Shown here: in pieces, positions 429-47,825 of the stretch
Numbering within the stretch: the first letter of the stretch is position 1
Layout: each line of letters opens with the position of its first letter
NCBI GenBank assembly: GCA_965242885.1
Contig: CBDETH010000008.1
Span: 1,442,225-1,506,224 of the forward strand
Length of the DNA stretch: 64,000 bases
From: a bacterium
GTDB taxonomy: Bacteria > JAAXHH01
Direction of reading: 5' to 3'
The notes under the pieces: generated by a model
The model's database searches: none
What the model was told of the DNA's origin: nothing
Seen by the model: the letters and a program-made list of their open reading frames with translations, nothing else
Translations under genes and position numbers: made by a program

Positions 429-830
429 ATGAACGAGCAGCAGCCGTCGGAAAAGAGCATGCAGCGCATGGAGAAGTACTGTGACAAGTACTGGGAAAAG
501 ACGGGTACGTCGCCTCATCCGAACGCGGAAGTTACCGACTCGGTGGTCAAGGGTCTCGCCGCCCACGTGGACGAACTGGGCCGCCCCCTTTGTCCGTGCA
601 ATTTCTATCCTGACAAGAAGGCCGAACTGGAACGCAGCCGCGAGTGGGTCTGTGCCTGCGATGAAATGAAGATCTGGAAATACTGCCACTGCCTGCTGTT
701 CGTGACCCCCGAGGGTCTTCCGATCACCGAATACCTTCCCGAAGACCACGAAGGCCGGCAGATGTACGGCCTGGTCAAGGATCCGACGCCGGACAAGGGC
801 AGGGAGGCGCGGCACCGCGCACCGGAGTGA
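429..830 (+). CDS. Ferredoxin-thioredoxin reductase catalytic-subunit-like protein (FtrC-like)
   Basis: Cys pattern CPC-x16-CAC-x8-CHC (CPCNFYPDKK...WVCACDEMKIWKYCHCLLF) matches the FTR catalytic chain signature. SD aaggag sits 7 nt upstream of the ATG. No variable subunit gene is adjacent. Confidence 0.6.
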   Translation: MNEQQPSEKSMQRMEKYCDKYWEKTGTSPHPNAEVTDSVVKGLAAHVDELGRPLCPCNFYPDKKAELERSREWVCACDEMKIWKYCHCLLFVTPEGLPITEYLPEDHEGRQMYGLVKDPTPDKGREARHRAPE

Positions 831-5490: not shown

Positions 5491-6279
5491 TTATCCAGGC
5501 CTTTGCCATGCCGCCGAAAGCCAGAACGGTAGTGCCGCGCGGGGATTCACCTTCCAGTCCACCAACCGCTTGTCCTTGCCCGGACGATAGGAGGCCCCCT
5601 CCCAGGCATTCGAATCCTCCGCGGGACGTTCCAGGATGTGCCGAAGGACCAGGCCTGCATCTGCCCCGGGGTTCAGCAGGTCGGCCATCGTCCAGTTGAA
5701 TTCGAAGGTTCCCTCTTTTTCGTCCCGAATAGGTCCTGTCTGCCAGTAGGGTTTGTCGACTTCAATGGACATGGCCTCATCCGACCACGGACGCTGGAAA
5801 GGATGCACATCGTAGAAGACGTAGTGTCCTCCCGGTCTCAGTATGCGAAAGACCTCCCCGTAAACCGCGCGGAGATCCGCGATCCAGACGAAGAACCCGT
5901 TGGTCGAACAGACCAGGTCGAACGAACGGTCCGCGATCACGCCGAGATCCATCGCGTCCGCCCGCACGAAGTCTATCGCCAGGCCCAGCTGATCCGCCCG
6001 TGTTGAAGCGGTGGCCAACTGTCGCTCGGAAATATCGATGGAAGTAACATGAGCCTTCATGCCCGCGAGGGCGAAGACGGCATGATTGTCCCCGCTGCCT
6101 ACGACGGCGACGTCCTTCCCTTCCACACTGCCGGTAAGGGATCCGATCAACTCGTATGCGCCGCCCGCGAATCCCAGTTCGGGTTCCTCCGGGCATCGGC
6201 GCCACAGACCGTCCCGGTCCCGCATTTCGGCCCAGGATCCGGCATTGTTGTCCCAGGATCGACGATTGGCATCGTGCAT
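5491..6279 (-). CDS. SAM-dependent methyltransferase, paralog of 3016-3861, with upstream in-frame start-codon repeat array
   Basis: Motif VAVVGSGDNHAVFALAGMKAHVTSIDIS...RADAMDLG. The conserved core starts at ATG 6279 (MHDANRRSW...). The open frame continues through four more ATG-containing repeat units (6309, 6339, 6369, 6399) up to 6597. Confidence 0.7.
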   Translation of the reverse strand: MHDANRRSWDNNAGSWAEMRDRDGLWRRCPEEPELGFAGGAYELIGSLTGSVEGKDVAVVGSGDNHAVFALAGMKAHVTSIDISERQLATASTRADQLGLAIDFVRADAMDLGVIADRSFDLVCSTNGFFVWIADLRAVYGEVFRILRPGGHYVFYDVHPFQRPWSDEAMSIEVDKPYWQTGPIRDEKEGTFEFNWTMADLLNPGADAGLVLRHILERPAEDSNAWEGASYRPGKDKRLVDWKVNPRAALPFWLSAAWQRPG

Positions 6280-6410
6280 CTCCACGGTCCGACGATTGGC
6301 ATCGTGCATCTCCGCGGTCCGGTGATTGGCATCGTGCATCTCCGCGGTCCGACGATTGGCATCGTGCATCTCCGCGGTCCGGTGATTGGCATCGTGCATC
6401 TCCGCGGTCC
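6261..6410. repeat. 30-bp x5 perfect or near-perfect tandem repeat (gacgattggcatcgtgcatctccRcggtcc)
   Basis: Units at 6261-6290, 6291-6320, 6321-6350, 6351-6380 and 6381-6410. On the minus strand each unit encodes RTAEMHDANR(H/R), so each includes an in-frame ATG. Confidence 0.9.
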
Positions 6411-6762
6411 GGCGAGGCGTTGTTGCGGTCATGGCGGCTGGCCTGTTCTTGAAACCGTATATACCGGTGTTGACACCCGGGCAATGGGGGAACTGTTGTC
6501 GTCCGTGTATCCGTCGATCGGGCATCCTTAATATATGAAAGAACACTCCGTAGCCGCAAGCGTACCGCATAAGGCGCTCTTCCTTGCAGGATGCCATTGA
6601 AAATCGGGGAATTCAACCGGCGCGCGGATACGAAAAATAGCCTTGACAGTCGCCGCGTGATCGTGCCTTGTTAACAGGTACGAACGTTTGAGAATCCATC
6701 CGACGCCCGTGCCACAGGGAGGCGCGGCACGGATCATGGAACCGCATCCGCGGAGGAGTGTC

Positions 6763-7086
6763 ATGGCAAAGTACATGTACCGTACCAAGTACACGCAAGC
6801 GGGCCTGCAGGGACTGCTCAGGGAGGGTGGTACAGGCCGGCGCGCGGCCCTTTCGCAGACGATCGAAGGGATGGGTGGCGCCCTGGAAGGATTCTACTAC
6901 GCCATGGGGGACGACGATCTCATCCTGATCGCCGAGATTCCCGACGAAGCCACCGCGACGGCGATCGCCCTCAACGTGGCCGCGGCGGGCGCGCTCGAAG
7001 TATCTACGACGGTGCTGATCTCACCCGAGACGATCGACGAAGCGGTGGGAAAGAGCGTGACCTACCGGTTACCCGGAGCGGAATAA
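6763..7086 (+). CDS. GYD-domain protein
   Basis: MAKYMYRTKYTQAGLQGLL...FYYAMGDDDLILIAEIPD fits the GYD family (~107 aa). SD ggaggag lies 5 nt upstream of ATG 6763. Confidence 0.6.
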   Translation: MAKYMYRTKYTQAGLQGLLREGGTGRRAALSQTIEGMGGALEGFYYAMGDDDLILIAEIPDEATATAIALNVAAAGALEVSTTVLISPETIDEAVGKSVTYRLPGAE

Positions 7087-7226
7087 GGCCGGCCAGGTCG
7101 ATGCACAGGCACGCCGGCCAGGCCCGGTCAGCCGTGGCCAGGTCTGGACGGCCGCGGCCTGACCCGATCATCCGTACCCTGGCCCCGTCCGTCGTGACCC
7201 ATTCCCGCGAACCGAAGATTTAACTG

Positions 7227-7254
7227 TTGCCATTCTGTTTTAAGTTGTTATACT
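7227..7254 (+). promoter_or_regulatory. Candidate sigma70-like promoter (ttgcca-16nt-tatact) in the AT-rich region upstream of the aor operon
   Basis: The only AT-rich stretch in this window: ttgcca at 7227-7232 and tatact at 7249-7254, about 180 bp upstream of the ferredoxin-like gene start. Confidence 0.2.
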
Positions 7255-7432
7255 GATTAGTAACCCCAGCAGTATTAGGTAATCACCTTACGTAATACAT
7301 CGTTGTCCTTCGCGATGACGGCCCTTGAAACCGGACGTAAGCGGCCTGTCATATACGCTATTTTTACCGTTGTTCAGGTCTACAGAAAGAAACGCCTCCA
7401 AACCCAGCTCATCGTTACAGAAGGGAGTCGGT

Positions 7433-7924
7433 ATGGCTAAATCTCTACGCATAATCCCTGAAAAATGCACCGGGTGCATGCAGTGCGAACTGGCATGTTC
7501 CTGGGTGCAGACCGGCATGTTTCAACCATCCCGGTCGCTGATCCGCGTGAACATATTCGATGAGCAGGCCAGTTACGCGCCGTACACCTGTTTCCAGTGC
7601 GACGAAGCCTGGTGCATGACGGCCTGCCCCGTGAATGCCATCAGCATCGACGCGGATACCGGCGCCAAGGTCGTGGGCGATGCCAACTGCGTAGGTTGCG
7701 GGTTGTGCACCATCGCCTGTCCCTTCGGCACGGTGTTCTACAATCCCGACACGCAGAAGGCCTTCAAGTGTGATCTGTGCGACGGCAATCCCGCCTGCGC
7801 GGTCGCCTGCCCGACGGGCGCCATCGAGTACACCGAGAGCGAGTCGGCCGACTGGCTGGGCGGCTGGGCTGAGAAGGTCAACGAGTCCTACCTGACATCC
7901 ATCGAGGGAGGGAACGCGGCATGA
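7433..7924 (+). CDS. 4Fe-4S dicluster ferredoxin-like electron-transfer subunit of aldehyde oxidoreductase (AorA-like)
   Basis: Several CxxCxxCxxxCP motifs (CTGCMQCELAC, CFQCDEAWCMTACP, CVGCGLCTIACP, CDLCDGNPACAVACP). SD aagggag upstream. The 4-nt ATGA overlap with the downstream AOR gene indicates translational coupling. Confidence 0.8.
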   Translation: MAKSLRIIPEKCTGCMQCELACSWVQTGMFQPSRSLIRVNIFDEQASYAPYTCFQCDEAWCMTACPVNAISIDADTGAKVVGDANCVGCGLCTIACPFGTVFYNPDTQKAFKCDLCDGNPACAVACPTGAIEYTESESADWLGGWAEKVNESYLTSIEGGNAA

Positions 7925-9768
7925 GCAACGGCGGATGGACAGGCACGATCCTGCGCGTCGATCTGACCACCGGTCGGATCTCCAAAGAGCCCCTCAACAT
8001 GGACTGGGCAAAGTCCTTCGTGGGCGGGCGCGGCCTCGCGGCCAGATACCTCTATGAAGAGATGGACCCGGCGGCGGACGCGCTGGGCCCGGATAACAAG
8101 ATGATTTTCGCGACCGGTCCCATGACCGGCACGAACGCCTCGACGAGTTCACGCTACATGGTGGTCACCAAGGGGGCGCTGACCAACGCCATTACCACGT
8201 CCAACTCGGGCGGCCACTGGGGACCGGAACTGAAGTTCGCCGGCTACGACATGCTGATCGTGGAAGGCCGGGCGCCGGTTCCGTCCTACATCTCCATCTG
8301 TGACGACGACGTCCGGATCTGCTCCGCCGAGCACCTGTGGGGCAAGACGGTATGGGAGACGGATGACATCGTCCGGGAGGAGTCGGGGCAACACGACACG
8401 GTCGTTACCTGTATCGGTCCGGCGGGCGAGAACCTCGTACGATTCGCCGCCATAGTCAATGACCGGCACCGGGCCGCCGGACGATCCGGCGTCGGCGCGG
8501 TCATGGGTTCGAAGAACCTCAAAGCCATTGCCGTACGCGGTACCGGGGGCGTGCCCATCGCCGACCCGCAGAAGTTCATGTCGGCCATGTGGGAGATGAA
8601 GAGCAAGCTGGTCGAGCATCCGGTAACGGGTGAGGGTCTGGCCGCATACGGCACCGCGGTGCTGGTCAACATCATCAACGAGAGCGGCGCACTGCCGACG
8701 AACAACCACCAGGTCTCGCAGCTGGAAGGCGCAGACAATATCAGTGGGGAGACCCTGGCCGATACGCGGCTGGTGGCCAACAAGGCGTGCTTCGGCTGCA
8801 CGATTGCCTGCGGCAGGGTGTCGCAGCTACCGGGCGAGGCGCAGGACAAGTTCACCGTGACCACCCGGCCCCACAACTGGAAGATCGCGGTGGAGGGACC
8901 GGAGTACGAGAACGCCTGGGCCATGGGCGCCGACTGCGGCATCAATGACCTGGACGCCCTCATCAAGGCGAACGCCATGTGCAACGAACTGGGCATGGAC
9001 CCGATTTCCTTCGGGGCGACGCTCGCCGCGGCCATGGAGCTGTACGAAACCGGCGCCGTGAGCGATGAGCAGACCGGCATGCCGCTGAACTTCGGGAGCG
9101 GCGAGGCACTCGTCGCCATGACGGAGAAGGCGGCCTACCGCGAAGGCTTCGGCGATGAACTGGCCGAGGGTTCCAAGCGCATGACCGCCAAGTTCAACCG
9201 GCCCGAGTTCTTCATGGGCGTGCGCGGCCAGGAGTTTCCGGCCTACGACGCACGGGCGATCCAGGGCATGGGGCTGGGTTATGCGACCTCGAACCGGGGC
9301 GCCTGCCACCTGAAGAGCTACACGGTCGCCCCCGAGATCCTGGGGATCCCGGAAAAGATGGATCCGGCCGTGACGGAAGGCAAGGCGGAGATCACCAAGA
9401 TCTTCCAGGACGCCACCTGCACCGTGGATGCGTCGGGCCTCTGCCTGTTCCTCACCTTCGGCGTGGGCCTGGACGAGATACAACCCCAGCTCGAGGCGGT
9501 GACCGGCATCTCCTACACGGTGCCTGAACTGCTGGAAGTCGGAGAACGCGTCTGGAACATCGAGCGCATGTGGAACCAGCGGGCAGGTTTCACGGGCAAG
9601 GACGACACGTTGCCGAAGCGGCTGCTCGAAGAACCGATCCCCGACGGACCGACCAAGGGCGAAGTAAACCGCCTCGGCGAGATGCTGCCGGAATACTACG
9701 AAATCCGCGGCTGGAACGCGGAAGGCGAACCCACTCAGGAGAAACTGGCGTCGCTGGGACTGGCGTAG
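7921..9768 (+). CDS. aor: Tungsten-containing aldehyde:ferredoxin oxidoreductase (AOR family), copy 1
   Basis: AOR-family N-terminus (GWTGTILRVDLTTGRISKEPL...GGRGLAARYLYEEMDP); 615 aa; CxxC cluster-binding region; adjacent ferredoxin-like and FAD subunits. Confidence 0.9.
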   Translation: MSNGGWTGTILRVDLTTGRISKEPLNMDWAKSFVGGRGLAARYLYEEMDPAADALGPDNKMIFATGPMTGTNASTSSRYMVVTKGALTNAITTSNSGGHWGPELKFAGYDMLIVEGRAPVPSYISICDDDVRICSAEHLWGKTVWETDDIVREESGQHDTVVTCIGPAGENLVRFAAIVNDRHRAAGRSGVGAVMGSKNLKAIAVRGTGGVPIADPQKFMSAMWEMKSKLVEHPVTGEGLAAYGTAVLVNIINESGALPTNNHQVSQLEGADNISGETLADTRLVANKACFGCTIACGRVSQLPGEAQDKFTVTTRPHNWKIAVEGPEYENAWAMGADCGINDLDALIKANAMCNELGMDPISFGATLAAAMELYETGAVSDEQTGMPLNFGSGEALVAMTEKAAYREGFGDELAEGSKRMTAKFNRPEFFMGVRGQEFPAYDARAIQGMGLGYATSNRGACHLKSYTVAPEILGIPEKMDPAVTEGKAEITKIFQDATCTVDASGLCLFLTFGVGLDEIQPQLEAVTGISYTVPELLEVGERVWNIERMWNQRAGFTGKDDTLPKRLLEEPIPDGPTKGEVNRLGEMLPEYYEIRGWNAEGEPTQEKLASLGLA

Positions 9769-9878
9769 CGCCCGATCCGGCTTCCGAGCCAGGGAGATCC
9801 ACGGGGCGTGTCCCCGGGCCAGGCGGCCGGGGCGCGACCCCGCATCACCCGGCCTGAGCCGAGGAATGGAGTTTCTTC

Positions 9879-11708
9879 ATGACACACGGGTGGGCCGGAC
9901 ATATCCTGCGGGTGGACCTGTCGCGGGGCAAGGCGACCAAAGAACCCCTGAGACTGGACTGGGCCGAGGAATACATCGGCGGCCGCGGACTGGCCGCCCG
10001 GTATCTCTACGAGGAGATGGACCCCTCGGCCGACGCCCTCGGTCCCGACAACAAGCTCATCATGGCCACCGGGCCGCTTACGGGCACCAATGCCTCCTGC
10101 GCCGCCCGCTACATGGTGGTCACCAAGGGACCGCTCACCGGCGCCATCACGACGTCCAATTCGGGCGGCCACTGGGGCCCTGAACTCAAGTTCGCCGGCT
10201 ACGACATGGTGATCGTGGAAGGCCGGGCCGACCGTCCCTGCTACCTCCTCGTCGACGATGACCGCGTCGAGATCCGCGACGCCGCCGGCGTGTGGGGCAA
10301 AGTGGTCTCGGAGACCGAGGACGCCATCCGCGACGAGACCGGCATGCCCGAACTGCGGGTGGCCGGCATCGGTCCGGCGGGCGAGAACCTGGTGCGGTTC
10401 GCGTGCATCGTCAACGACAAGCACCGGGCGGCCGGCCGTTCCGGCGTCGGCGCCGTCATGGGCTCCAAGAACCTCAAGGCCATCGCCGTACGCGGCAACC
10501 AGGGCGTGCGGGTCGCGCGGCCCCTGGATTACATGTCCGCCATCTGGTCCTACCACGAGCATCTGGCGGAGAGCCCCGGCCGGCAGGGCCTCACGGAACT
10601 GGGCACGGCCCCCACGGTCGACCTGGTCAACACCTTCGGCGGCCTGCCGACCCGCAATTTCACGGCCGGCCAGTTCGAAGGCACCGAGGCGATCAACGGG
10701 GAGAGCATCAAGGACAACTGGCTGATCGCAAACAAGGCGTGCTTCGCCTGCAATATCGCCTGCGGCCGCGTGACCCAGGTGTCCCCCAACGCCGACAAGT
10801 ACATGGTCAACATGCATCCCCGCAACTGGAAGGTCGCCGGGGAGGGACCGGAGTACGAGAACCTCTGGTCGCTGGGGGCCGACTGCGGCGTGGACGACAT
10901 GGACGCCATCGTCATGGCCAACTACCTGTGCAACGACCTGGGCATGGATCCCATCTCCATGGGCGCCACGCTGGCCACGGCCATGGAGATGTACGAGCGG
11001 GGCCTGCTGAACGATGATCAGACGGGCATGGCGCTCCGGTTCGGAGACGGCAAGGCCCTGGTCGCCATGACGGAAGCCACGGGATTCCGGGAAGGCTTCG
11101 GCGACGAACTGGCCGAAGGCTCCAAGCGGATGACCGACAAGTTCGAGCACCCGGAGTACTTCATGGGCGTCAAGGGGCAGGAGTTCCCGGCCTATGATCC
11201 CCGGGGATTCCAGGGCATGGGCGTGGCCTATGCCACCTGCAACCGCGGCGCCTGCCACCTGAGGGCCTGGACGCCCGGCATCGAGACCAGCGGAGAGTAC
11301 GATCCCCACGGCACTGACGGGAAGTCGGTCTGGGTGGCCGAGGAGCAGAACCGGACCACGGCCCACGACGCCACGGGCATCTGCATGTTCACCACGGCGG
11401 GCGCGCCCCTGGACGACCTGATCCCCGTGCTGTCCGCGGCCACCGGCGTGGACTACACCATGGACGACTTCGTGCACATCGGCGAGCGGATCTGGAACAT
11501 CGAACGGCTGTGGAACCTGAAGGCCGGTCTCACCGCGGCCGATGACACGCTGCCGAAAAGACTGATGGAAGAGGCCCACAAGGAAGGGCCTTCGGCGGGC
11601 GTGACCGTCGATCTCGACGCCATGCTGCCGGACTACTACGCCGCCCGGGGATGGACGGCGGACGGACGGCCCACCACGGAAAAACTGGTGGAGCTGGGCC
11701 TCGCGTAG
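9879..11708 (+). CDS. aor: Tungsten-containing aldehyde:ferredoxin oxidoreductase (AOR family), copy 2, a tandem paralog
   Basis: About 65-70% identical to copy 1 along its whole length (GHILRVDLSRGKATKEPL...GGRGLAARYLYEEMDP...). Confidence 0.9.
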   Translation: MTHGWAGHILRVDLSRGKATKEPLRLDWAEEYIGGRGLAARYLYEEMDPSADALGPDNKLIMATGPLTGTNASCAARYMVVTKGPLTGAITTSNSGGHWGPELKFAGYDMVIVEGRADRPCYLLVDDDRVEIRDAAGVWGKVVSETEDAIRDETGMPELRVAGIGPAGENLVRFACIVNDKHRAAGRSGVGAVMGSKNLKAIAVRGNQGVRVARPLDYMSAIWSYHEHLAESPGRQGLTELGTAPTVDLVNTFGGLPTRNFTAGQFEGTEAINGESIKDNWLIANKACFACNIACGRVTQVSPNADKYMVNMHPRNWKVAGEGPEYENLWSLGADCGVDDMDAIVMANYLCNDLGMDPISMGATLATAMEMYERGLLNDDQTGMALRFGDGKALVAMTEATGFREGFGDELAEGSKRMTDKFEHPEYFMGVKGQEFPAYDPRGFQGMGVAYATCNRGACHLRAWTPGIETSGEYDPHGTDGKSVWVAEEQNRTTAHDATGICMFTTAGAPLDDLIPVLSAATGVDYTMDDFVHIGERIWNIERLWNLKAGLTAADDTLPKRLMEEAHKEGPSAGVTVDLDAMLPDYYAARGWTADGRPTTEKLVELGLA

Positions 11709-11720
11709 CGAATCCCAATC

Positions 11721-11764
11721 CACGGATGACAAACAACCACGGATGACAAACAACCACGGATGAC
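11721..11764. repeat. 17-bp x2.6 tandem repeat (cacggatgacaaacaac) between aor copy 2 and the FAD-subunit gene
   Basis: Units at 11721-11737 and 11738-11754, with a partial unit at 11755-11764. Confidence 0.8.
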
Positions 11765-11804
11765 CTGTACTTCGTTTTACGGTACTTAGCTGAAGGAGTG
11801 GATT

Positions 11805-13175
11805 ATGGCTACAGAACACGTGATTATCGGCGGTGGACCGGGCGGGATGAATGCCATCGAAACGATCCGGGGTTATGACTCGGACGCGTCCATTACCCTG
11901 ATCTCCGATGAGCCGGCCTATTCCCGCATGGCCCTCCCATACTACATATCGGGAAACATCCCGGTCGAGCAGGTGAATACCGGAGACGACGACTATTTCG
12001 GCAGGCTGGGGGTGAAGACCCGCTTCGGGGTCAGCGTCTCCGAGGTGAATCCCCACGCGAGCATGCTCACGCTCAGCGACGGTTCCATGGTGCCTTTCGA
12101 CAACCTGCTGATCGCCACGGGATCGTCCGCCCAGAAGCTGAACATCCCCGGCGCCGACGGCGACGGCGTCCATAATCTCTGGACCGTTGCCGACGCGGAA
12201 AAGACCGTGGACGCCCTGGGAAGCGATGCCGAGGTGGCCTTCATCGGGGCCGGGTTCATCGGGTTCATTATCCTCAACGCGATGCACAAGCGCGGCGCCC
12301 GCCTGAAGGTGATCGAACTGGAAGACCAGGTGCTGCCCCGCATGCTGGACGCCCAGGGCGCTTCCCTGGTGGGATCCTGGCTCGAGTCCCAGGGCGTCGA
12401 AGTCCACACCGGCGTAAGCGTACAGGGCATCGATCACGGGCACGACGGCGTCAAGACCCTGGAGCTTTCTGACGGATCATCCACCCGGGCGGACGTGGTC
12501 ATCGTGGCCACGGGGATCAAGGCCAACATAGGTTTTCTCGAAGGTTCGGGCATCGAGACCAACGAGGGCATCCTGGTCAACAACCGGTGCCAGTCCAACG
12601 TGGCCAACGTGTACGCCGCGGGCGACGTGGCCGAGGGACCGGACCTCTCCACCGGCGGACAGGCGGTACACGCCATTCAGCCCACCGCGGTCGACCATGG
12701 CCGGATCGCCGGCGCCAACATGGCCGGCCAGGACGTGGAGTATCCCGGCAGCCTGCTGATGAATATCCTCGATGTGTGCGGACTGCAGTGCGCCAGCTTC
12801 GGCGACTGGTCAGGTGAAGGCGACGTCACCGAGGTCATCAACGCCAACCGCCCCGTCTACCGCAAGCTGATCTGGGACGGGTCCACGATCTCCGGTGCCA
12901 TCATGCTCGGTCCTGCCGACGACGTGGCCATGTTGAACGACATGGGGATGATCAAGGGACTGATCCAGGCCAAGACGGACCTGGGCGCGTGGAAGCAGCA
13001 CATCCAGGCGAACCCGACGGACATCCGGCGGCCCTACGTGGCTACGAAGACCGCGGAGAAGATGCTGGCCCTTACCTCGCTGGGCAAGCCGTCCGAGCAC
13101 CGGTCGTACCAGCATGCCCAGAATGCCGGCAAGGACCGCAGCGCGCACCAGGTCTTCGTCGATTCAACTGGTTAG
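11805..13175 (+). CDS. FAD/NAD(P)-binding pyridine nucleotide-disulfide oxidoreductase family protein (AorC-like electron-transfer subunit)
   Basis: N-terminal FAD Rossmann fold (VIIGGGPGGMNAIE) and a second dinucleotide site (AFIGAGFIGFIILNAM). SD aaggag upstream. Position matches the AorABC-type operon. Confidence 0.8.
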   Translation: MATEHVIIGGGPGGMNAIETIRGYDSDASITLISDEPAYSRMALPYYISGNIPVEQVNTGDDDYFGRLGVKTRFGVSVSEVNPHASMLTLSDGSMVPFDNLLIATGSSAQKLNIPGADGDGVHNLWTVADAEKTVDALGSDAEVAFIGAGFIGFIILNAMHKRGARLKVIELEDQVLPRMLDAQGASLVGSWLESQGVEVHTGVSVQGIDHGHDGVKTLELSDGSSTRADVVIVATGIKANIGFLEGSGIETNEGILVNNRCQSNVANVYAAGDVAEGPDLSTGGQAVHAIQPTAVDHGRIAGANMAGQDVEYPGSLLMNILDVCGLQCASFGDWSGEGDVTEVINANRPVYRKLIWDGSTISGAIMLGPADDVAMLNDMGMIKGLIQAKTDLGAWKQHIQANPTDIRRPYVATKTAEKMLALTSLGKPSEHRSYQHAQNAGKDRSAHQVFVDSTG

Positions 13176-13257: not shown

Positions 13258-14157
13258 TCAATTTCCAAACAGGAATCGCACGTTCAGTGTCACGGACCAG
13301 TGGTTTGTGGCGCTGAACGTGTTTTTGTTTGTAAGCGAAGGATCCGTGTCGAAATGGGGATGGTACTCGTACGTCCCGATGTGTTCGACGTCGTCCACCC
13401 TCGCATAGGCCGCTTTGAGACCGACTGCGGCACGGTCGTTCAAGCTGTAGTCGGCGCCCGCGTACACATGCCCCGCGAATACCGTATCGGATAACCGGGT
13501 ATCCTGCTTGCTGTTGTAGAAGGACAGCGGCGGATCGTAGACCGTACCCTCTCCGGAGGGGTCACTGTATTCGATCGAGAAGAAGATCCGGGTCAGTTCC
13601 ACGAACGCAATGCCGGTGCCCACCCCCACGTAGGGCGTGATCCTGCTCGGTCCGAAGGGAAGATCGTAGTACGCGTTCAGGGTCACCGTTCTCGTCACGA
13701 GGTCTTCAAAGAAATTGGTGCTGGCAGCCTGTACCAGACCCTGGCTGAGGAATGTACTGGCGCCCGCTGTGCTGCCATCGAGGTAAGTTATCTCAAGGGG
13801 CGGTCCCTGGTCGACCTTGTTTCTCCGATGTGCGTATGAGACCTCGATGCGGGTGCGGTCGAATATCCGTCCGACGGCCGCATCGAAACCGATACCCCGT
13901 TCGGCGGATGGGTCGTAACGCCACCGATAGCCTGGAATGTCCCGCAGAATCATATCGAAACAGGCGCTGGTGGGATAACACGTGGACTCCGTGTTCGAGC
14001 CTGACTGGTCCAGGCCATAAACGAAATTTCCACCGAGTCCGCCTGAGACGTACCAGCCGGAATCCCTCCGATCCTGTGCCGCCGCTTCGCCGTGCGCGGC
14101 GAGGAGCAGGCAGATCGAAAGCGCGAAAGCCACGGTAATTTGTCTCTGTAGATTCAT
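13258..14157 (-). CDS. Outer-membrane beta-barrel protein (OmpW/porin-like)
   Basis: Signal peptide MNLQRQITVAFALSICLLLAAHGEAAAQ; alternating amphipathic beta-strand pattern; aromatic C-terminus (..RFLFGN). Confidence 0.5.
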   Translation of the reverse strand: MNLQRQITVAFALSICLLLAAHGEAAAQDRRDSGWYVSGGLGGNFVYGLDQSGSNTESTCYPTSACFDMILRDIPGYRWRYDPSAERGIGFDAAVGRIFDRTRIEVSYAHRRNKVDQGPPLEITYLDGSTAGASTFLSQGLVQAASTNFFEDLVTRTVTLNAYYDLPFGPSRITPYVGVGTGIAFVELTRIFFSIEYSDPSGEGTVYDPPLSFYNSKQDTRLSDTVFAGHVYAGADYSLNDRAAVGLKAAYARVDDVEHIGTYEYHPHFDTDPSLTNKNTFSATNHWSVTLNVRFLFGN

Positions 14158-19315: not shown

Positions 19316-20611
19316 TCAGCGACTCCTTTCCTTGATGTAGATATTCCCGCTGTTCGTCTTCAGACGGATCCGATCGCCACCGCCGTTGAGGTCGCCGCTG
19401 GCTTCGCTCTGCACGTAGAAAAAAACGCCCCATTCGCTCTGGTTCAGGCGGAAATCCGAATCGATGTGGCCCAGATCATCGCGCCACAGCCGGCTTAACA
19501 GGAGTCCACCCGACGATCCCTCCGCATCGATCGTAGCCGGCAGGTCTTCGGGCAGATAGATGGTGACGTCTCCTTCGGTGGTTTCAAGGTTACGTTGGGT
19601 TTCAGGGCCGCGTTCTGTATCTTGAGAGTCGGTTTCCGTCTGTGCTGTATCCCGGCTTGTGCGGGCAACATACACTTCGATGCTGCCGCGAATAGCCTGC
19701 GCCTTTACTGAGCCCCGTGCGTCGAAGAGGTGTATATTGCCGTCGAGCGCGCCTGCGTCAATCTCTCCATCCGTTGTATCCGTTTCGATGTTTCCATCCT
19801 CGGTATCTACTGTCACTGCGCTCTGTGCGCCGCGGACCGAAATGTCGCCGTCTGTCGTCGAGGCGCTGACATCGCCCGTCACGCGACGGATGTAGATATT
19901 GCCGTCCACGGATTTCGCCGCTACAGTGCCTCGCGTGTTGTGGATTTCGATATCGCCATCGGTCGAACGAGCCGTGACGGGACCGCGGGTGGAGTTGATT
20001 TCGATGTCGCCGTCCACGGCGTGGGCCGTGACAGAACCTGTTACCTCTTCAATCTCGACGTTGCCGTCCGTCGTGCCTGCGTCGACCAGACCTTCCGCCG
20101 TGCGGATTTCGATGTCGCCGTCCACGGTTCGGGCTGTGACGGGACCCATCACCTCTTCTATCTCGATATTCCCATCAACGGTCGTGAGATCCAGTGTGCA
20201 CGATACGGGCACGCGTACGTTCATTTCAACGGTTACACGATTGCGAAAGAAAATCGACTCATCTTTGTCAACAACCCGGATATGCACTTCGTTATCCCGC
20301 CGCGACAGTACCACCTCGACTTCTTCGAAAGCGTTGCGCGCCCGATCTTCACGCCGGCCTTCGATCCGTTTTTCTATATGAATCTCCACCTCGTCGTTCG
20401 TCCAGCTGTCCACCTGGATCGATCCGATCTCGGCCTCCAACGTCAAGGTTGCTGCCGGGTCGACCGTGTATCGCCGCTCGATGGTTTCCACGAACCCGTC
20501 TTCATCGCGCGCGAAGGTGGCTTCCTGTGCGTCACCTGGCGAAGGCGCTACGATGAACAGGGCGAGCCATGTACAGCATACAACTGCGCGATACAGGGGT
20601 TTCATTATCAT
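19316..20611 (-). CDS. DUF4097-family beta-strand-repeat ('putative adhesin') protein, paralog 1
   Basis: Signal peptide, then repeated VDGNIEIEEVxGxVTAxxVDGDIEI... units. Confidence 0.6.
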   Translation of the reverse strand: MIMKPLYRAVVCCTWLALFIVAPSPGDAQEATFARDEDGFVETIERRYTVDPAATLTLEAEIGSIQVDSWTNDEVEIHIEKRIEGRREDRARNAFEEVEVVLSRRDNEVHIRVVDKDESIFFRNRVTVEMNVRVPVSCTLDLTTVDGNIEIEEVMGPVTARTVDGDIEIRTAEGLVDAGTTDGNVEIEEVTGSVTAHAVDGDIEINSTRGPVTARSTDGDIEIHNTRGTVAAKSVDGNIYIRRVTGDVSASTTDGDISVRGAQSAVTVDTEDGNIETDTTDGEIDAGALDGNIHLFDARGSVKAQAIRGSIEVYVARTSRDTAQTETDSQDTERGPETQRNLETTEGDVTIYLPEDLPATIDAEGSSGGLLLSRLWRDDLGHIDSDFRLNQSEWGVFFYVQSEASGDLNGGGDRIRLKTNSGNIYIKERSR

Positions 20612-20671
20612 GCTGACCGAGTTGGTTGAGTTCGACCTTCACTTAAAAGGATTTGACCGCACAGAACGGTT

Positions 20672-21541
20672 TCAGGAGGAGCCGACCGTAACGCGTCCCC
20701 CCAGGGCACTGGAGTTCACTTTACCTCCCACTTCGTCGATATCGATACTTCCGCCGATCGTCTTCACGTCCACATCGCCAAGCGTTGGGCCGATTTCGAT
20801 GTTCCCGCCTACCGTCCCGGCTTTGACGTTACCCTGGACCCTGCCGATTTCGATGTTTCCACCCGTCGTTTTCACGTCGACATCTCCACCGGTGTCACCG
20901 ATTTCAATGTCACCACCCGTAGTCTTCGCCTTCACGCCGCCATCCGCCCGTTCGACCGTGATGTCTCCACCGGTCGTAGACGCCTCGGTTTCCCTGCCGC
21001 CGCCCCGTATCCTGATGTCTCCTCCGGCGGTGCCGGCCGTGACGTCGCCGTCCGAGACGGTGCCGATATCCACGTCGCCTCCCGCGGTCCTGGCGTTGAT
21101 GTCGCCGTTCAGGTCGCCGGTCTCGATGTCCCCGCCCGATGTCTTGAGTTCCAGGTTGTAGGTTTCCGGCACCCGCACTTTCACTTTTACCGAAACCCGG
21201 TTGTTCCTGAACCATCCCGGCCGGTCGATCTCGACGCGCACGCCGTCCCGGTCCTGCGATATTTCCACTTCCACCTCTTCAAGTTCCTGCCGGGCCCGCT
21301 CCTCGTCGACTCTCCGGATCCTTTTCTCCACGAACACATCCACTTCGTTCCTGGACCAGGGCTCGACCTGTATGGAACCCATATCCGCATCTACGGTCAG
21401 GGTACCGCCCGGTTCTACCGCGTACTGCTCCTCGATCTGTTCCACATGACCGCGTCCATCCACCATGGAAGTAACCTCCTGCGCGCTGCATCCCGAAGCG
21501 ATGAACGCGAACACCATCGTCAACAGTCCTGAAGGTCTCAT
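20672..21541 (-). CDS. DUF4097-family beta-strand-repeat protein, paralog 2
   Basis: Signal peptide MRPSGLLTMVFAFIASGCSAQE; repeated TGGDIEIG/TGGDVDVKT units; SD gagggagg upstream. Confidence 0.6.
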   Translation of the reverse strand: MRPSGLLTMVFAFIASGCSAQEVTSMVDGRGHVEQIEEQYAVEPGGTLTVDADMGSIQVEPWSRNEVDVFVEKRIRRVDEERARQELEEVEVEISQDRDGVRVEIDRPGWFRNNRVSVKVKVRVPETYNLELKTSGGDIETGDLNGDINARTAGGDVDIGTVSDGDVTAGTAGGDIRIRGGGRETEASTTGGDITVERADGGVKAKTTGGDIEIGDTGGDVDVKTTGGNIEIGRVQGNVKAGTVGGNIEIGPTLGDVDVKTIGGSIDIDEVGGKVNSSALGGRVTVGSS

Positions 21542-21607
21542 AGCCTCCCTCGCTCGCTATACTGCTAATCTACCACTATGGACGCGCATCCGCAACGCTG
21601 TCCGGCG

Positions 21608-22915
21608 TCACTGTTTCTTGATTTCGATATTGCCGTTCGTCGTTTCGATCCTGATCGTGTCGCCGCCGCCGTTGATGTCGCCCCGGACCCTGGCCTGGCC
21701 GCCGCTTCCGTATCCGTATACCCGTGCCCATGTCGAATTGCGGCTGCCGATGTTGTCGTTACCGTCGATGTCGAATTCCGAATACACGCGGTAGTCGCGG
21801 CGTTTCCAGAATCCTGAAACACCGAGATCGACCGTGGCGTCGATAGTCGCCGCCAGGTCTTCCGGCAGATAGACCGTCACTTCGCCGCCGGTCGATTCAA
21901 GATGGCAACTGCGATCGACTGAGGGGTCTGTTCCGCCAAGTGCGACATTGAGGTCGCCCCCCGAGGTCTTTGCCGTCACGCCGCCCTGTGCGTTTTCAAT
22001 CTGGATGTCCCCGCCCGTGGTCCTGACCGTGACGGTTCCTCTGGCGTTTTCGATGTCGATGTCCCCGCCTCCGCTTTCGGCATCCACGCCATCCATCGCG
22101 TTTTCGATCTGGATATCGCCCCCCGAAGTTTCTATCGACAACCTGCCCGATGCGTTTTCGATGTCGATATCTCCACCGGACGACGTCGCCGTCAGCTTGC
22201 CGGCCGTGTTTTCGATCTCGATGTCTCCGCCGGATGTCCTGACATCCACGTCCCCATCGGCGTGTTCGATCTGGATATCGCCCCCGGAGGTCTGCACTAC
22301 CGTCCTTCCGCCGGCGTTTTCAATCCGAACGTCCCCCCCGGACGTTTTCATCCTGGAATCCGCGTCGCTGCTTTCCAAACGGATATCGCCTCCCGACGTG
22401 CGGACGTCGACGTTCGACTCGCGGATGTTCCCCATGACCACGTCGCCTCCCGACGACCGGGCGCGGACGTCACCTCGCAGGTCATCGATTACGATATCGC
22501 CGCCGGAGGCTTTAAGATCAAGATGGTAGCGTTCGGGGACCCGCACCGTGATACTTACGGTTACTCTGTTCCGCCGATTCGAATCCGGGCCGTCCACGCT
22601 GATGTGCACGTCATCGTCCCTTTTTTCCGTTCTGACCTCGATGTCGTCGAAGGCCCTGCGCGCCCGGCCTTCGTCTAAGAACTCCGACCGTTTTTCAACC
22701 GTCACGTTCACTTCGCCCTTCGCCCAACTGCTGATCTCAATCGATGCGAACGCGTTGTCCGTCGTCAGCGTACCCCCGGATTTCACCGGGAAGCTGTATT
22801 GGGACTGTTCTACGTAGTCCGCGCCGTCACGCATAAACTTTGTCTCCTGTGCACTGCTCGTATACACAGCGGATATTGAGGCGCAAATCAGCGCCGCCAT
22901 CCCCAGCGATCTCAT
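21608..22915 (-). CDS. DUF4097-family beta-strand-repeat protein, paralog 3
   Basis: Repeated SGGDIxIEN units. The ATG at 22915 (MRSLGMAALICAS...) has a strong SD gggagggg 4 nt upstream; the ORF frame extends to 22966 with a TTG. Confidence 0.6.
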   Translation of the reverse strand: MRSLGMAALICASISAVYTSSAQETKFMRDGADYVEQSQYSFPVKSGGTLTTDNAFASIEISSWAKGEVNVTVEKRSEFLDEGRARRAFDDIEVRTEKRDDDVHISVDGPDSNRRNRVTVSITVRVPERYHLDLKASGGDIVIDDLRGDVRARSSGGDVVMGNIRESNVDVRTSGGDIRLESSDADSRMKTSGGDVRIENAGGRTVVQTSGGDIQIEHADGDVDVRTSGGDIEIENTAGKLTATSSGGDIDIENASGRLSIETSGGDIQIENAMDGVDAESGGGDIDIENARGTVTVRTTGGDIQIENAQGGVTAKTSGGDLNVALGGTDPSVDRSCHLESTGGEVTVYLPEDLAATIDATVDLGVSGFWKRRDYRVYSEFDIDGNDNIGSRNSTWARVYGYGSGGQARVRGDINGGGDTIRIETTNGNIEIKKQ

Positions 22916-23028
22916 AGCCCCTCCCGTGATCATGGAAACGTCGCGTCGATGTGTGCTGAACTGCAACTACCTATAAGACTGTGGGGAAGGGGAAAATGTT
23001 GCGTGCGAGACAAGGATTTCCCGGTTGC

Positions 23029-25223: not shown

Positions 25224-27221
25224 ATGAGCGTACGCCAGCGGTCTTCCGCGCCGTCCGGAAAGCCGGATTCCCATCCTCCCGGTACGGGGCCTCCCGCCCG
25301 GCATGGCGGACTGGCGTCGGGCATGACGCTCCGGGCGGTGGGTCTCGGCCTGGGACTCTCCGTGTTCATGGCGTGGTGGGTGGTGCATTCCGCCTTCGAA
25401 GCTCATTCTTCCTACCTTTCCATTACCCACTTGCCCATGGCGGCGCTCTTCCCCTTCATGCTGGTCGTCTTCGTCATAAACGGCCTGTTGAAGCGTTTCG
25501 CGCCCACGCGGATCTTCACCGCGCCGGAACTGATCATCATCTTCTTCATCGTGTTCACGGCCTCGGCCGTCCCGGGATGGGCCTTTACCACCTACTGGGT
25601 CGCCATCCCATCCATCCCCCACTACTACGCCAATTCCGAGAACAGATACGTCGAGTTGTTCTTCGAGTACCTGCCGACCTGGCTGATCGTCCCCGACGAA
25701 CGGCGGGCCGTGCACTGGTTCTACGAGGGCCTGCCGTCTACGGGTATCATTCCCTGGCGGGACTGGATCATCCCCATGAGCTGGTGGGGTACCTTCTTCC
25801 TGGCCCTCTTCTTCGCCAGCGCATCGCTCATGGTGATCCTGCGCAAGCAATGGATCGAAAGGGAGCGGTTGACCTTCCCGCTGGCCCGCGTTCCCCTGCT
25901 GCTCGTCGAGGATGACGACAGCGGTTCCGTGCTGCCCCGGATCGCCCGGTCCAGGGTGTTCTGGTACGGTTTTTCTATCCCCCTCTTCGTCATCCTGTGG
26001 AATATCGTCTCGTACTGGGACTTCGTGCCGCCCATCAAACTGGGCGGCGATTACCGCATCCCGATCACCCTGGCCGAATCCTTCCCCCCGATACAGTTCA
26101 AGATCAGTTTCGCTTTCATCGGCATCGGCTTCTTCACGAACCTCAATATCCTGTTCAGCATCTGGGTATTCTTCCTGTTGGCCACAATCCAGATCGGCAT
26201 CATGAGCCGGTTCGGCATTCCGAAGACGACCGAGATCGTCACGGCGCAGCACCTGGGCGGTTTTTTCATGTACACGCTCTTCGGACTCTGGATGGCGAGA
26301 CGCCACCTATACGACGTGGTGCGAAAGGCCATCGGCCGGGGACAAGACATTGATGATTCGGGGGAGTTCTTCTCGTACCGGACCGCCATGGCGGGCGTGG
26401 TGTTCGGCATCGTCTACATGTTTTTCTTTCTGATCAGCATGGGCATGTCATTTGCCGCCGCGGCCACGCTGCTGGCCACCTGCATGCTGCTCTTTATCGG
26501 GGTCACCCGCGTAGTGGCGGAAGCCGGTCTGATCTACCTGGACCTGCCCTACAACGCCCACGAATTCACGGTTTTTTCCTTCGGGTCGGCGAACCTGCAC
26601 CGGGCCGACCTCACGATACTGACGCTGTCCCAGACCTTCTCGAGGAACTGGCGGACACTGGGCATGTGCGCCATGGCACACGTCAACAAGATGGGCGACG
26701 AGATCGGCGGGGCCCGGCGCGGGATTTTCCCGGTCATCGTCTCGGCCCTCCTCATGGCCGCGGTCATATCGGTCGTCTATACGGTGTTCCTGGGTTACGA
26801 TACCACCGGAGCGGACGGGTTCGAGGACGCCTTCGGCAATGCAAAGAGAGGCTACGAGACGCTGGCGACGTGGATCAACAACCAGACGCAGTTGACCGGC
26901 GGCGAGTACATGGGCCTGGGGGTCGGCGCGCTCACCGCCTGGCTGCTGATCCTGGCCCACCACAACTTCCACTGGTGGCCGCTGCATCCCATCGGCTGGG
27001 CGGTCGCCAAGACCTGGGCCATCGGGATGATCGCCACTTCGATTTTCATGGTCTGGCTCATCAAGGCCATAATCATGAAACTGGGCGGCACGAGACTCTA
27101 CCGCCAGTCGCAGCCCTTCTTCATCGGCATGCTGGTGGGGTACGTACTGGGTGTCGCACTTTCCTACGGCGTGGATGTGATCTGGTTTCCCGCCTCGGGG
27201 CATATCGTGGAGACGTGGTAA
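25224..27221 (+). CDS. Polytopic integral membrane protein, uncharacterised family, paralog A (665 aa, ~14 predicted TM)
   Basis: Many hydrophobic helices. Conserved blocks shared with paralogs B and C: ILRKQWIERERLTFP, VAEAGL, WWPLHPIG, GQPFFIG. Confidence 0.6.
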   Translation: MSVRQRSSAPSGKPDSHPPGTGPPARHGGLASGMTLRAVGLGLGLSVFMAWWVVHSAFEAHSSYLSITHLPMAALFPFMLVVFVINGLLKRFAPTRIFTAPELIIIFFIVFTASAVPGWAFTTYWVAIPSIPHYYANSENRYVELFFEYLPTWLIVPDERRAVHWFYEGLPSTGIIPWRDWIIPMSWWGTFFLALFFASASLMVILRKQWIERERLTFPLARVPLLLVEDDDSGSVLPRIARSRVFWYGFSIPLFVILWNIVSYWDFVPPIKLGGDYRIPITLAESFPPIQFKISFAFIGIGFFTNLNILFSIWVFFLLATIQIGIMSRFGIPKTTEIVTAQHLGGFFMYTLFGLWMARRHLYDVVRKAIGRGQDIDDSGEFFSYRTAMAGVVFGIVYMFFFLISMGMSFAAAATLLATCMLLFIGVTRVVAEAGLIYLDLPYNAHEFTVFSFGSANLHRADLTILTLSQTFSRNWRTLGMCAMAHVNKMGDEIGGARRGIFPVIVSALLMAAVISVVYTVFLGYDTTGADGFEDAFGNAKRGYETLATWINNQTQLTGGEYMGLGVGALTAWLLILAHHNFHWWPLHPIGWAVAKTWAIGMIATSIFMVWLIKAIIMKLGGTRLYRQSQPFFIGMLVGYVLGVALSYGVDVIWFPASGHIVETW

Positions 27222-47142: not shown

Positions 47143-47817
47143 ATGACCCGCGTAGACGATGCCGTATTGAACGGTCTGGCCGAATTCGACTCGGCCACGG
47201 TTTACAATGCCGTGGAAAAAGTGCAGGGCGTATCCAACGACGACTATACAGGACCTGAAATCCAATACCTGACGCCCGAATTCGGCGCCGTGATCGGGTA
47301 CGCGGTGACGTCCGAGGTCACCCCGCTGGACGCCACACCGGCCAATCTGACCTGGCCCGACTACTACGACGTGCTCAACGAAACGCCGGGTCCCATGATC
47401 GCGGTGATGAAGGACGTCGACACCCGTCCGAAGCGCGCCGCCCTCTTCGGAGACGGCATGGCGCATATCCACAGGAAGCTTGGCGTAGTTGGCGCCGTGG
47501 TCGAAGGCTGCGTCCGCGATCTCGAGGGCATCCGGTCAGCGGGCCTGCCCATCTGGGGCATCGGCACGGTATCCGGCCATGGTCCTTTCAACGTGCGGGC
47601 CGTAGGCCGGCCTCTTGTGGCCGGACAGCTGCTCGTGCAGACCGGCGACCTGTTGCTCGCCGACGTGGACGGCGTGGTGAAGATCCCCCTCGATATCGCG
47701 AAAGACACCCTGAGAAAGGCGAACGAGATCAGGACGTGGGAACGGACCCACTTCGACATGATCAACAGCCCCGATTTCTCCTACGAAAAGTGGAAGAACC
47801 GGGAATCGCAGGCGTAA
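47143..47817 (+). CDS. RraA-like (RraA / 4-hydroxy-4-methyl-2-oxoglutarate aldolase family) protein
   Basis: RraA-fold segments ([12 protein letters not shown]...[10 protein letters not shown]...[16 protein letters not shown]...[12 protein letters not shown]); SD aaaggag upstream. Confidence 0.7.
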
Positions 47818-47825
47818 GCCGCCTA

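Follow-up and report, generated by a model that had tools for sequence, protein, structure and literature searches.

A putative AorABC-type tungsten aldehyde oxidoreductase operon with catalytic subunit genes from two clades in a Latescibacterota-like bacterium

Positions 6763-13175 of the 64,000-nucleotide stretch of DNA analysed here (the window), which comes from an uncultured Latescibacterota-like bacterium, hold in order a GYD-domain gene, aorA, a first catalytic gene (aorB1), a 110-bp spacer, a second catalytic gene (aorB2), a 17-bp repeat and aorC (Table 1). The products of the four aor genes each find chains of PDB 8C0Z, the AorABC complex of Aromatoleum aromaticum (Aa), as their best or second-best match, and they fall into the Pfam families Fer4 (AorA), AFOR_N/AFOR_C (AorB1 and AorB2) and Pyr_redox_2 (AorC). 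The stop of aorA overlaps the start of aorB1, each gene has its own Shine-Dalgarno (SD) sequence, and the 110- and 96-bp spacers on either side of aorB2 contain no terminator. We consider it reasonably probable that the locus is one operon encoding a tungsten aldehyde oxidoreductase of Class III (AorABC / WorS-L-N type) with two non-redundant catalytic subunits. An earlier note on this DNA had proposed an AorABC-type locus, which is borne out by the 8C0Z matches and by the conserved W-bis-MPT, FS0, catalytic, FAD and NAD residues; its coordinates, the 110-bp separation and the position of the 17-bp repeat between aorB2 and aorC were all reproduced. Similarly, the Pfam scan agreed with the note in finding neither a tungstate or molybdate transporter nor genes of Moco biosynthesis among 49 ORFs of the whole window (ORFs shorter than 90 aa were scanned only within the locus). 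The metal (tungsten rather than molybdenum), specificity for NAD, the formation of filaments and the substrates are predicted from sequence.

Table 1. Features of the aor locus, in positions of the window.
Feature	Position	Strand	Description
GYD-domain gene	6763..7086	+	ATG start; Pfam PF08734, E=8.8e-23
Candidate sigma-70-like promoter	7227..7254	+	TTGCCA-16-TGnTATACT in an AT-rich stretch 5' of aorA
aorA (WorS)	7433..7924	+	Poly-ferredoxin, 163 aa; four [4Fe-4S] motifs; C-terminal tail
aorB1 (WorL)	7921..9768	+	615 aa; start overlaps aorA stop (ATGA), translationally coupled
B1-B2 intercistronic spacer	9769..9878	+	110 bp; GC-rich hairpin; no T-run terminator
aorB2 (second WorL)	9879..11708	+	609 aa; AFOR_N + AFOR_C; distinct AorB clade
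17-bp tandem repeat	11720..11764	.	CCACGGATGACAAACAA; 2.6 copies, 100% match, TRF score 90; in the B2-aorC spacer
aorC (WorN)	11805..13175	+	FAD-containing, NAD-binding subunit, 456 aa; Pyr_redox_2
Terminator-like hairpin and T-run	13279..13321	+	20-pair stem followed by TTTTTGTTTG; 104 bp past the aorC stop

The GYD gene had been noted as the direct upstream neighbour of the system, which holds for the window but not as a conserved arrangement: it precedes aorA solely in relatives of at least 95% identity (L006, L090, L092 and L093) and is absent from those at 82-87% (L004, L089 and L095). This confined adjacency ruled it out as a component of the system. A gap of 346 bp with a promoter-like site separates it from aorA, and the gene is probably a transcription unit of its own. 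The promoter candidate matches the consensus at 10 of 12 positions and has an extended -10 TG; such sites are no commoner in the region than in shuffled sequence, so what recommends the candidate is its position. The 346-nt leader 5' of aorA has no unusual fold (z = -0.27), and searches for riboswitches and known RNAs upstream of aorA and in the spacers (Rfam, E<=1) returned chance-level matches only. The spacer between aorB1 and aorB2 folds with an MFE of -58.1 kcal/mol (z = -2.2) and holds the aorB2 SD (GGAG) within a conserved 3' stem; in the consensus fold of five relatives, which has almost no covariation, the SD pairs with GCAUC. The expansion of the 17-bp repeat differs from strain to strain: its unit is present as a single copy in relatives at 95-96% identity (L090-L092) and is replaced by different inserts in L006 and L093, which led us to reject a function for it, and conservation of this spacer is limited to the last repeat unit and the sequence 3' of it. 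The terminator-like hairpin overlaps the 3' end of a convergent OMP gene, the 3' neighbour of aorC, and sites of its kind do not exceed their number in shuffles either.

AorA, for which we took the ATG at 7433 as start (the ORF lister begins at an upstream TTG at 7325), has 8c0z_C as its best PDB match (E=1.3e-54) and conserves 16/16 cysteines. Its tail (A-DWLGGWAEKVNxSYLxSI) aligns with the filament helix of A. aromaticum (ADWTGLARMQAWAAKAN); the 25-residue conserved stretch and that helix have a W..WA.K.N motif in common, with a 5-residue gap. An AF2 model of AorA placed a helix at residues 141-162, but its mean pLDDT of 45 was too poor for it to serve as confirmation of the filament helix, and it was discarded. 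AorC, with 8c0z_E as its best match (E=1.3e-77), carries two GxGxxG motifs (GGGPGG at 9-14 and GAGFIG at 148-153), and its R41, M42, R179 and Q292 correspond to R41, M42, R179 and Q294 of A. aromaticum (residue list and numbering from PMC10413684).

Both catalytic ORFs are full length when aligned to solved AORs (query residues 4/5 to 608/614, against 1AOR and 8C0Z), with Pfam E-values for AFOR_N and AFOR_C of 8e-82 and 9e-146 in B1 and 1.6e-84 and 1.9e-139 in B2. The best PDB match of B1 is 9mqx_D (1.4e-224), with 8c0z_A at 5e-219, and B2 matches 8c0z_A at 2e-195. The cysteines of the proximal [4Fe-4S] cluster are C290/293/297/508 in B1 (Aa C295, C298, C302 and C509) and C288/291/295/502 in B2, and the residues that contact pterin, phosphate and Mg (Aa R75, N92, G94, R181, A182, D361 and D504), together with the catalytic Aa E331, H464 and Y443, are identical in B1, B2 and their relatives. 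Measured against the relative L006 at a dS of ~0.3, dN/dS comes to 0.063 in B1 and to 0.055 in B2. The two copies are intact and of old origin, and purifying selection acts on them equally strongly (dN/dS ~0.06).

We give almost no credence to the possibility that one of the copies is a decaying pseudogene or that the pair is an assembly artefact. In its favour, a remnant of B2 persists in a sister lineage, and L132 and L158 have frameshifted copies; however, both ORFs in the window are full length, keep all functional residues and have the low dN/dS given above, and B1 and B2 are both fragmented in L132, which points to sequencing error there. In addition, at least 13 independent contigs share the order A-B1-B2-C (L004/L005, L006, L086, L089, L090-L098 and L132), all of one Latescibacterota-like lineage, so that the arrangement is not an artefact of assembly.

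The copies part ways in the substrate pocket. In 8C0Z, benzoate is held by an aromatic triad (Aa Y468, F511 and F514), and the corresponding Y467/F510/F513 of B1 form the same canonical Y/F/F, which is present in all four solved AOR-clade structures (including 1AOR, 9MQX and 9G7J), i.e., the pocket of B1 is the one known from the enzymes of A. aromaticum, P. furiosus, A. mobile and C. autoethanogenum. In B2 the triad reads W464/F504/A507 against the canonical Y/F/F, and there are further changes: C454 (Aa S458), LGTAPTVD replacing YGTAVLVN, and the deletion of a 3-aa loop. W468, C458, T246, D248 and the loop deletion (Aa numbering) mark the B2 clade without exception; position 514 varies within it (A/G/S/F/M), whereas the Trp at 468 is invariant. 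B1 and B2 are separated by 19 fixed differences, pocket residues among them. Two outcomes, a pseudogene or a common narrow-specificity clade with identical channel residues, had been set beforehand as speaking against two distinct subunits; neither was seen, as both genes are undisrupted and they differ in their pocket residues.

The earlier note had described the second gene as a tandem duplicate of the first at 65-70% identity, a value that applies to codon-aligned DNA (69%) but not to protein (62%). The description as a tandem duplicate was not supported either. B1 is 73-85% identical to the AorBs that other phyla carry in single-copy A-B-C operons (termed here first-type operons), among which it is nested with 87-98% support in neighbour-joining trees with bootstrap, and B2 is 66-73% identical to the AorBs of second-type operons and stand-alone relatives, with which it forms a clade of 100% bootstrap support. 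Each of the two has closer relatives in other phyla than in the adjacent copy, and the term "tandem duplication" oversimplifies this relationship. A simple tandem duplication of aorB within this lineage, with an effect on dosage or slight sub-functionalisation, would account for two adjacent copies of the same strand and length at 62% amino acid and 69% nucleotide identity, and a second B-B' locus (L125/L128, of which L125 carries a ThiS/MoaD-family ORF) shows that such pairs arise more than once, this different pair having arisen independently of B1-B2. We nevertheless hold this origin to be quite improbable: the identities to outside AorBs (73-85% for B1 and 66-71% for B2) both exceed that between the copies, the two fall into separate clades with 97-100% support, no conversion tract was found (none above 76% nucleotide identity between B1 and B2), and fixed differences extend to the pocket. 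A recent duplication is already contradicted by the identities and the trees; the within-genome dS of 0.77 between B1 and B2 was rejected as a sign of recent origin, its low value being attributed to the extreme GC3 that both share (85-90%).

The trees of AorA and AorC contain congruent second-type clades (97% and 99% support), outside which the window's AorA and AorC fall; they group with first-type operons, a placement with support of 38-60% only. As the more parsimonious origin of the arrangement, we lean towards the insertion of a B2-clade aorB into a first-clade operon, behind its aorB1 and ahead of its aorC, and think it less likely that an ancient tandem duplication was followed by repeated losses. 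B2 is retained in the same position, with B1 before it and aorC after it, in relatives down to 78% identity, at which dS is saturated. A B2 of 93-98% identity is also found on 3-4 Mb MAG contigs (P0122, P0135, P0138 and P0141, among others). In the sister lineage L001-L003, the four-gene order was secondarily lost: what is left of B2 between B1 and aorC are fragments covering aa 1-66 (frameshifted), 182-207 and 586-609, and in these lineages, as in L064, B2 is dispensable.

To our knowledge, a single tungsten aldehyde oxidoreductase of Class III (NAD-linked, with three subunits) has been characterised to date; its catalytic subunit is of one type, and every described Class III WOR / AorABC member has one catalytic subunit type per complex. 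The window departs from this pattern in having two AorB genes of different clades between aorA and aorC. An operon with two AorB types is not mentioned in PMC13328260, PMC10413684, PMC6365974 or PMC12318220, and a search for literature on two-AorB operons or on AOR in Latescibacteria found nothing. The characterised system, AorABC of A. aromaticum EbN1 (PDB 8C0Z; Class III WOR, clade 87; PMC6365974, PMC10413684), has the same aorA-aorB-aorC order. Its AorA likewise contains 16 Cys and ends in a homologous tail, its AorB has the residues for cofactor, cluster and catalysis in common with both window AorBs and the aromatic pocket in common with B1, and its AorC agrees with that of the window in the FAD and NAD residues. 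An insertion of ~15 residues (ftv..p.nwk) occurs in the AorBs of both systems but is missing in P. furiosus AOR and in 9MQX. The window differs from the operon of this betaproteobacterium in its two catalytic genes against one, in lacking the accessory maturation genes aorD/aorE (MoaD-like) downstream of aorC, and in an AorC with ~40 extra C-terminal residues. Identity to Rhodocyclales relatives is ~55-58% for B1, ~58% for AorA and ~39% for AorC.

Closer to the window are uncharacterised first-type operons in MAGs of Binatia, Methylomirabilales and Deltaproteobacteria (e.g., L008 and L123), with B1 73-75%, AorA 71-77% and AorC 53-55% identical, a canonical pocket and no second catalytic gene. 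The B2 signature is shared with second-type A-B-C operons and stand-alone AORs from Planctomycetota and unassigned metagenome contigs (e.g., L099-L122 and L087), likewise uncharacterised; in second-type operons there is no AorB besides the B2-type protein, which pairs with AorA and AorC lineages of its own, whereas in the window it follows B1 and is accompanied by first-type-like AorA and AorC. The best PDB match of B1 is WorL of Acetomicrobium mobile WorABCSL (PDB 9MQX; Class IV bifurcating WOR nanowire; PMC12318220), whose WorS is homologous to AorA and forms a nanowire via its C-terminal helix. However, the window has no BfuABC-like bifurcating module, and its AorA matches 8c0z_C (1e-54) far better than 9MQX of A. 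mobile (6e-31).

From these likenesses we propose that AorB1 and AorB2 would both dock on AorA, a four-cluster ferredoxin, and that AorA-AorB protomers, joined through the C-terminal tail of AorA, would polymerise to a short filament, either mixed or homotypic for the two AorBs, capped by AorC, which would exchange electrons with NAD(H). One shared Fe-S wire and one NAD site could then serve the oxidation of two sets of aldehydes or the reduction of two sets of acids. It is plausible that both catalytic subunits would share the AorA/AorC module. A comparison of AorA-interface residues between partnered and solo AorBs gave three signature positions each way, with the solo set partly mislabelled.

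Alternatively, B2 could be a passenger that is co-transcribed with the other genes, works alone and linked to ferredoxin (Class I-like), and does not dock on AorA/AorC. Stand-alone B2-clade genes are known (L087 of Planctomycetota, L088, L110 and L117), around which 5-7 kb contain neither AorA nor AorC and which indicate that the clade can work without this module; moreover, there is a single aorA for two aorB genes, translationally coupled to B1 only, and B2 can be deleted while A-B1-C persists. On the evidence of L087 and L088, all of the nearest outgroups of B2 had appeared to be stand-alone, a view overturned by ~20 A-B2like-C operons in the metagenome scan: most sampled B2-clade genes are the sole AorB between their own aorA and aorC, i.e., the clade is normally partnered. 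Together with the long retention of B2 between B1 and aorC, and with the absence from both copies of the dimer-bridging Glu332/His383 (Fe-bridging) of P. furiosus (K/V in B1 and M/V in B2), this makes the passenger reading unlikely, and we prefer docking of both subunits on AorA.

A bolder version of such docking, to which we assign only a slim chance, is a hetero-decorated nanowire in which B1 and B2 sit on the same AorA filament and electrons pass directly between the two tungsten sites as well as to NAD via AorC. Oxidation of one aldehyde class could then, for instance, drive reduction of a different carboxylic acid. Winiarska et al. suggested swapping the AorBs along the wire, purely as a proposal for engineering (PMC10413684); a hetero-decorated wire, if real, would be a natural version of that proposal, one that seemingly arose at least twice (in the window lineage and in L125/L128).

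A whole bacterial lineage thus keeps two catalytic subunits with different pockets beside one wire and one NAD subunit. Its gain, retention and decay among close relatives make B2 a natural experiment on the purpose of a second subunit. If both subunits dock on the wire, the locus would represent a natural modular decoration of an electron-conducting enzyme filament, would draw attention to an uncharacterised AorB clade (with a Trp468 pocket and a shortened loop) whose substrate range is probably different, and would supply biocatalysis with existing components for reducing acids and oxidising aldehydes.

ORF, Pfam and repeat analysis upheld the locus as the earlier note had described it (gene order, tandem AOR genes, spacer and repeat): a poly-ferredoxin gene (aorA), two adjacent catalytic genes (aorB1 and aorB2, for B1 and B2) and a flavoprotein gene (aorC). 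The identity of 65-70% claimed for the two copies is true for DNA only, because the codon-aligned genes are 69% identical and the proteins 62%. The GYD-domain gene is found upstream of aorA in the closest relatives only, a convergent outer-membrane-protein gene comes after aorC, and the neighbours (methyltransferases, rhodanese, 2-hydroxyacid dehydrogenase, the outer-membrane protein) point to no pathway. Tungstate transporter and Moco genes had been reported absent, and a Pfam scan of 49 ORFs spanning the full 64 kb of the window indeed found neither a tungstate/molybdate transporter nor a Moco biosynthesis gene.

Features of the locus and other features of the window (window positions)
Feature	Position	Strand	Remarks
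Ferredoxin-thioredoxin-reductase beta-like gene	429-830	+	
SAM-methyltransferase ORF, 368 aa	5491-6597	-	Methyltransf domain aa 166-261
30-bp tandem repeat x 5.2	6260-6415		93% match; N-terminal part of methyltransferase ORF; encodes RRTAEMHDAN five times, before the domain; true start codon may be 3' of repeats
GYD-domain gene	6763-7086	+	ATG start; ORF/Pfam
Degenerate 20-bp repeat x 3	7116-7175		65% match; GGCCAGGCCCGGTCAGCCGT; just 3' of GYD stop, in GC-rich half of GYD-aorA spacer
aorA, 163-aa poly-ferredoxin	7433-7924	+	ATG start; 346-bp spacer 5' of gene
aorB1, 615-aa AOR-family	7921-9768	+	ATG shares ATGA with aorA stop
Conserved 3' stem (GCAUC...GGAG)	9850-9878		In aorB1-aorB2 spacer
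aorB2, 609-aa AOR-family	9879-11708	+	110-bp spacer after aorB1
17-bp tandem repeat x 2.6	11720-11764		Perfect; inside aorB2-aorC spacer
aorC, 456-aa pyridine-nucleotide-disulfide-type flavoprotein	11805-13175	+	96-bp spacer after aorB2
Three consecutive toastrack DUF4097 genes	19316-22966	-	
Two DUF6785+DUF6784 membrane-protein genes	25224-27221; 34080-36074	+	One followed by 1522-aa FtsX/M28 fusion
Histidine-utilisation cluster	47736-53721	+	Urocanase, histidine ammonia-lyase, imidazolonepropionase-like amidohydrolases

PDB searches matched AorA to chain C (1e-54) and AorC to chain E (1e-77) of 8C0Z, the Aromatoleum aromaticum AorABC structure, chain A of which was the top match of B2 (2e-195) and the second-best of B1 (5e-219), behind WorL of Acetomicrobium mobile (9MQX). 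The sequences of 8C0Z, 1AOR (P. furiosus AOR), 9MQX and the solved AOR 9G7J were reconstructed from printed alignments, and numbering was verified against residues in PMC10413684. Both B1 and B2 keep the pterin, phosphate and Mg residues listed in that paper (R75, N92, G94, R181, A182, D361, D504), the four FS0 cysteines, and the proposed catalytic Glu331, His464 and Tyr443. All 16 of 16 AorA cysteines are present, and its conserved C-terminal tail aligns to the filament-forming helix of AOR_Aa (an AF2 model has a helix there, at a pLDDT of 45, too poor to count); AorC retains both GxGxxG motifs plus R41, M42, R179 and Q294. An insertion of ~15 residues is common to B1, B2 and A. aromaticum AorB (AaAorB) but missing in P. 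furiosus AOR and 9MQX, whereas the MoaD-like aorD/aorE of the A. aromaticum operon (PMC6365974) are lacking in this one. Every part of the locus is of a known kind, and under the 2026 WOR classification it encodes a Class III (WorL-S-N) enzyme; this class accounts for 5% of the WOR family, and a single member of it is characterised (PMC13328260).

Outside its own species group, B1 is closest to proteins of Zixibacteria- or Latescibacteria-labelled MAGs (83-85% identical), followed by a tier at 73-75% from Methylomirabilales, Binatia and Deltaproteobacteria; the relatives of B2 lie at 78-98%, then in a large set at 66-73%. In a neighbor-joining tree (200 bootstraps) the two fall into separate clades, joined at 97% in a clade that is sister (84%) to a proteobacterial clade with AaAorB, and in a wider tree the B2 clade receives 100% and B1 is nested within the ordinary single-copy aorA-aorB-aorC (A-B-C) clade at 87-98%. 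Compared tract by tract, the DNA of the two copies is nowhere more than 76% identical. The catalytic gene had been described as tandemly duplicated, but the separate clades and the nesting of B1 among single-copy operons argue that the pair is not a simple tandem duplicate and make a plain duplication of aorB improbable.

Both copies are intact and under purifying selection: against L006, a 96% identical locus in a Candidatus Latescibacterota MAG (dS about 0.3), B1 has a dN/dS of 0.063 and B2 one of 0.055, similar to aorA (0.031) and aorC (0.099). Neither copy is decaying, and a pseudogene or artefact is scarcely credible. The substrate triad at 8C0Z positions 468/511/514 is Tyr/Phe/Phe in B1, AaAorB, P. 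furiosus AOR, 9MQX and 9G7J, and Trp464/Phe504/Ala507 in the window's B2. Invariant throughout the B2 clade are Trp468, Cys458 (elsewhere Ser), Thr246, Asp248 and a three-residue deletion in the loop that follows the catalytic His, with position 514 variable (A/G/S/F/M). At 19 positions the B1 clade is fixed for one residue and the operonic B2s for another, and 21 positions with a conservation of 90% or more among partnered AorBs are altered across the B2 clade. The two proteins therefore most likely share their chemistry (aldehyde/acid interconversion at W) and differ in substrate range.

When one genome per GTDB species was scanned, two AORs occurred in only one of the 80 best AorB loci, L006, which likewise has the order GYD-A-B1-B2-C; the majority of the rest had A-B-C. 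More A-B1-B2-C loci came from look-ups and from a scan of metagenomes (L004/L005, L089, L090-L098), along with a B-B-C locus at a contig end (L086) and a frameshifted A-B1-B2-C (L132). The arrangement is present in 13 or more contigs, drawn from roughly twelve datasets, with B2 identity as low as 78% and synonymous sites saturated, and the four-gene order is retained lineage-wide with occasional loss. In three loci on marine metagenome contigs (L001-L003; B1 84% identical), the 447-467 bp between aorB1 and aorC still code fragments nearer B2 than B1 (a frameshifted stretch of residues 1-66, then 182-207 and 586-609), and L064 has lost B2 wholly. Gene callers label a 46-56-aa AFOR_N ORF inside the L001-L003 relic (about 9846-10312).

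The metagenome scan showed that B2-clade genes at 66-71% identity are mostly the sole AorB of their own A-B-C operon (~20 loci, L099-L122), only some standing alone (L087, L088, L110, L117); the downstream flank of L115 is just ~260 bp. In the AorA and AorC trees, the second-type operons group in separate clades (97% and 99%) that agree with the B2 clade, and the AorA and AorC of the window lie outside them, among first-type operons (single-copy, with a B1-like AorB), at a support of only 38-60%. On the simplest account, a first-type operon would have taken up a B2-clade aorB, which came to lie between its own aorB and aorC. Less simple but still plausible is an ancient duplication with repeated, independent losses, because B2 loss is directly seen in L001-L003 and a different pair exists. 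In this second, independently arisen pair, seen in L125 (155-6187) and L128 (66-3193), a canonical AorB precedes a 63%-identical copy that has a different pocket again (Y468F, S458N, F514A) and lacks the B2 signature.

Other operon variants were also seen. L125 has a SnoaL-like and a ThiS/MoaD-family ORF between its aorB pair and aorC. Two betaproteobacterial MAG loci (L032, L050) carry two AorC-like flavoprotein genes, as A-B-C-C and C-A-B-C; therefore the NAD subunit can be duplicated too. A Binatia chromosome (L008, 1197-3979) has a second, distant WorS/WorL-like pair (34%/29% identity to AorA/B1) 2.5 kb upstream of its A-B-C operon (~5 kb start to start).

A good sigma-70-like candidate site lies in an AT-rich stretch 180 bp 5' of aorA and a long hairpin with a T-run 3' of aorC, each of a site class not enriched over shuffles; no intergenic terminator was found between operon genes, and Rfam families, including the Moco riboswitch, gave no match. 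The aorB1-aorB2 spacer folds as a hairpin of high GC content (-58 kcal/mol, z = -2.2), and the B2 Shine-Dalgarno GGAG is paired in its conserved 3' stem (five-relative consensus, covariation almost nil), a hint that B2 translation could depend on ribosomes finishing B1. The 17-mer is single copy in the 95-96% relatives L090-L092, L093 and L006 carry other inserts, and conservation of the aorB2-aorC spacer is limited to the last 17-bp unit and 50 nt downstream. In the 86% relatives (L094-L098), heptamer repeats occupy both B2-flanking spacers in numbers that differ by contig (CACCAAT x 1-5, with inverted ATTGGTG units ahead of it, and ACTTGCC x 2-4). These spacers are hypervariable intercistronic sequences, not conserved elements, and their repeat-rich character appears to be a lineage-wide trait. 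The L086 spacers hold other repeat-rich, hairpin-forming sequences.

Both AorBs would bind AorA and feed the single NAD-linked AorC, on the model of Aor(AB)nC filaments (PMC10413684). We consider such sharing of one AorA/AorC module probable: AorA and AorC are the usual operon partners of B2-clade proteins, and the position of B2 within the operon is maintained. Against it stand the stand-alone B2-clade genes, the coupling of the lone aorA to B1 only, and the dispensability of B2 in relatives, and sequence comparison gave no AorA-interface evidence for B2. A B2 that is co-transcribed but works independently of AorA/AorC seems unlikely. The searchable WOR/AOR literature, of limited coverage, makes no mention of a two-catalytic-subunit operon, which is absence of evidence only. 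What is new here is the placing of two AorB clades on one AorA/AorC module, the recurrence of this arrangement, and an uncharacterised Trp468 clade.
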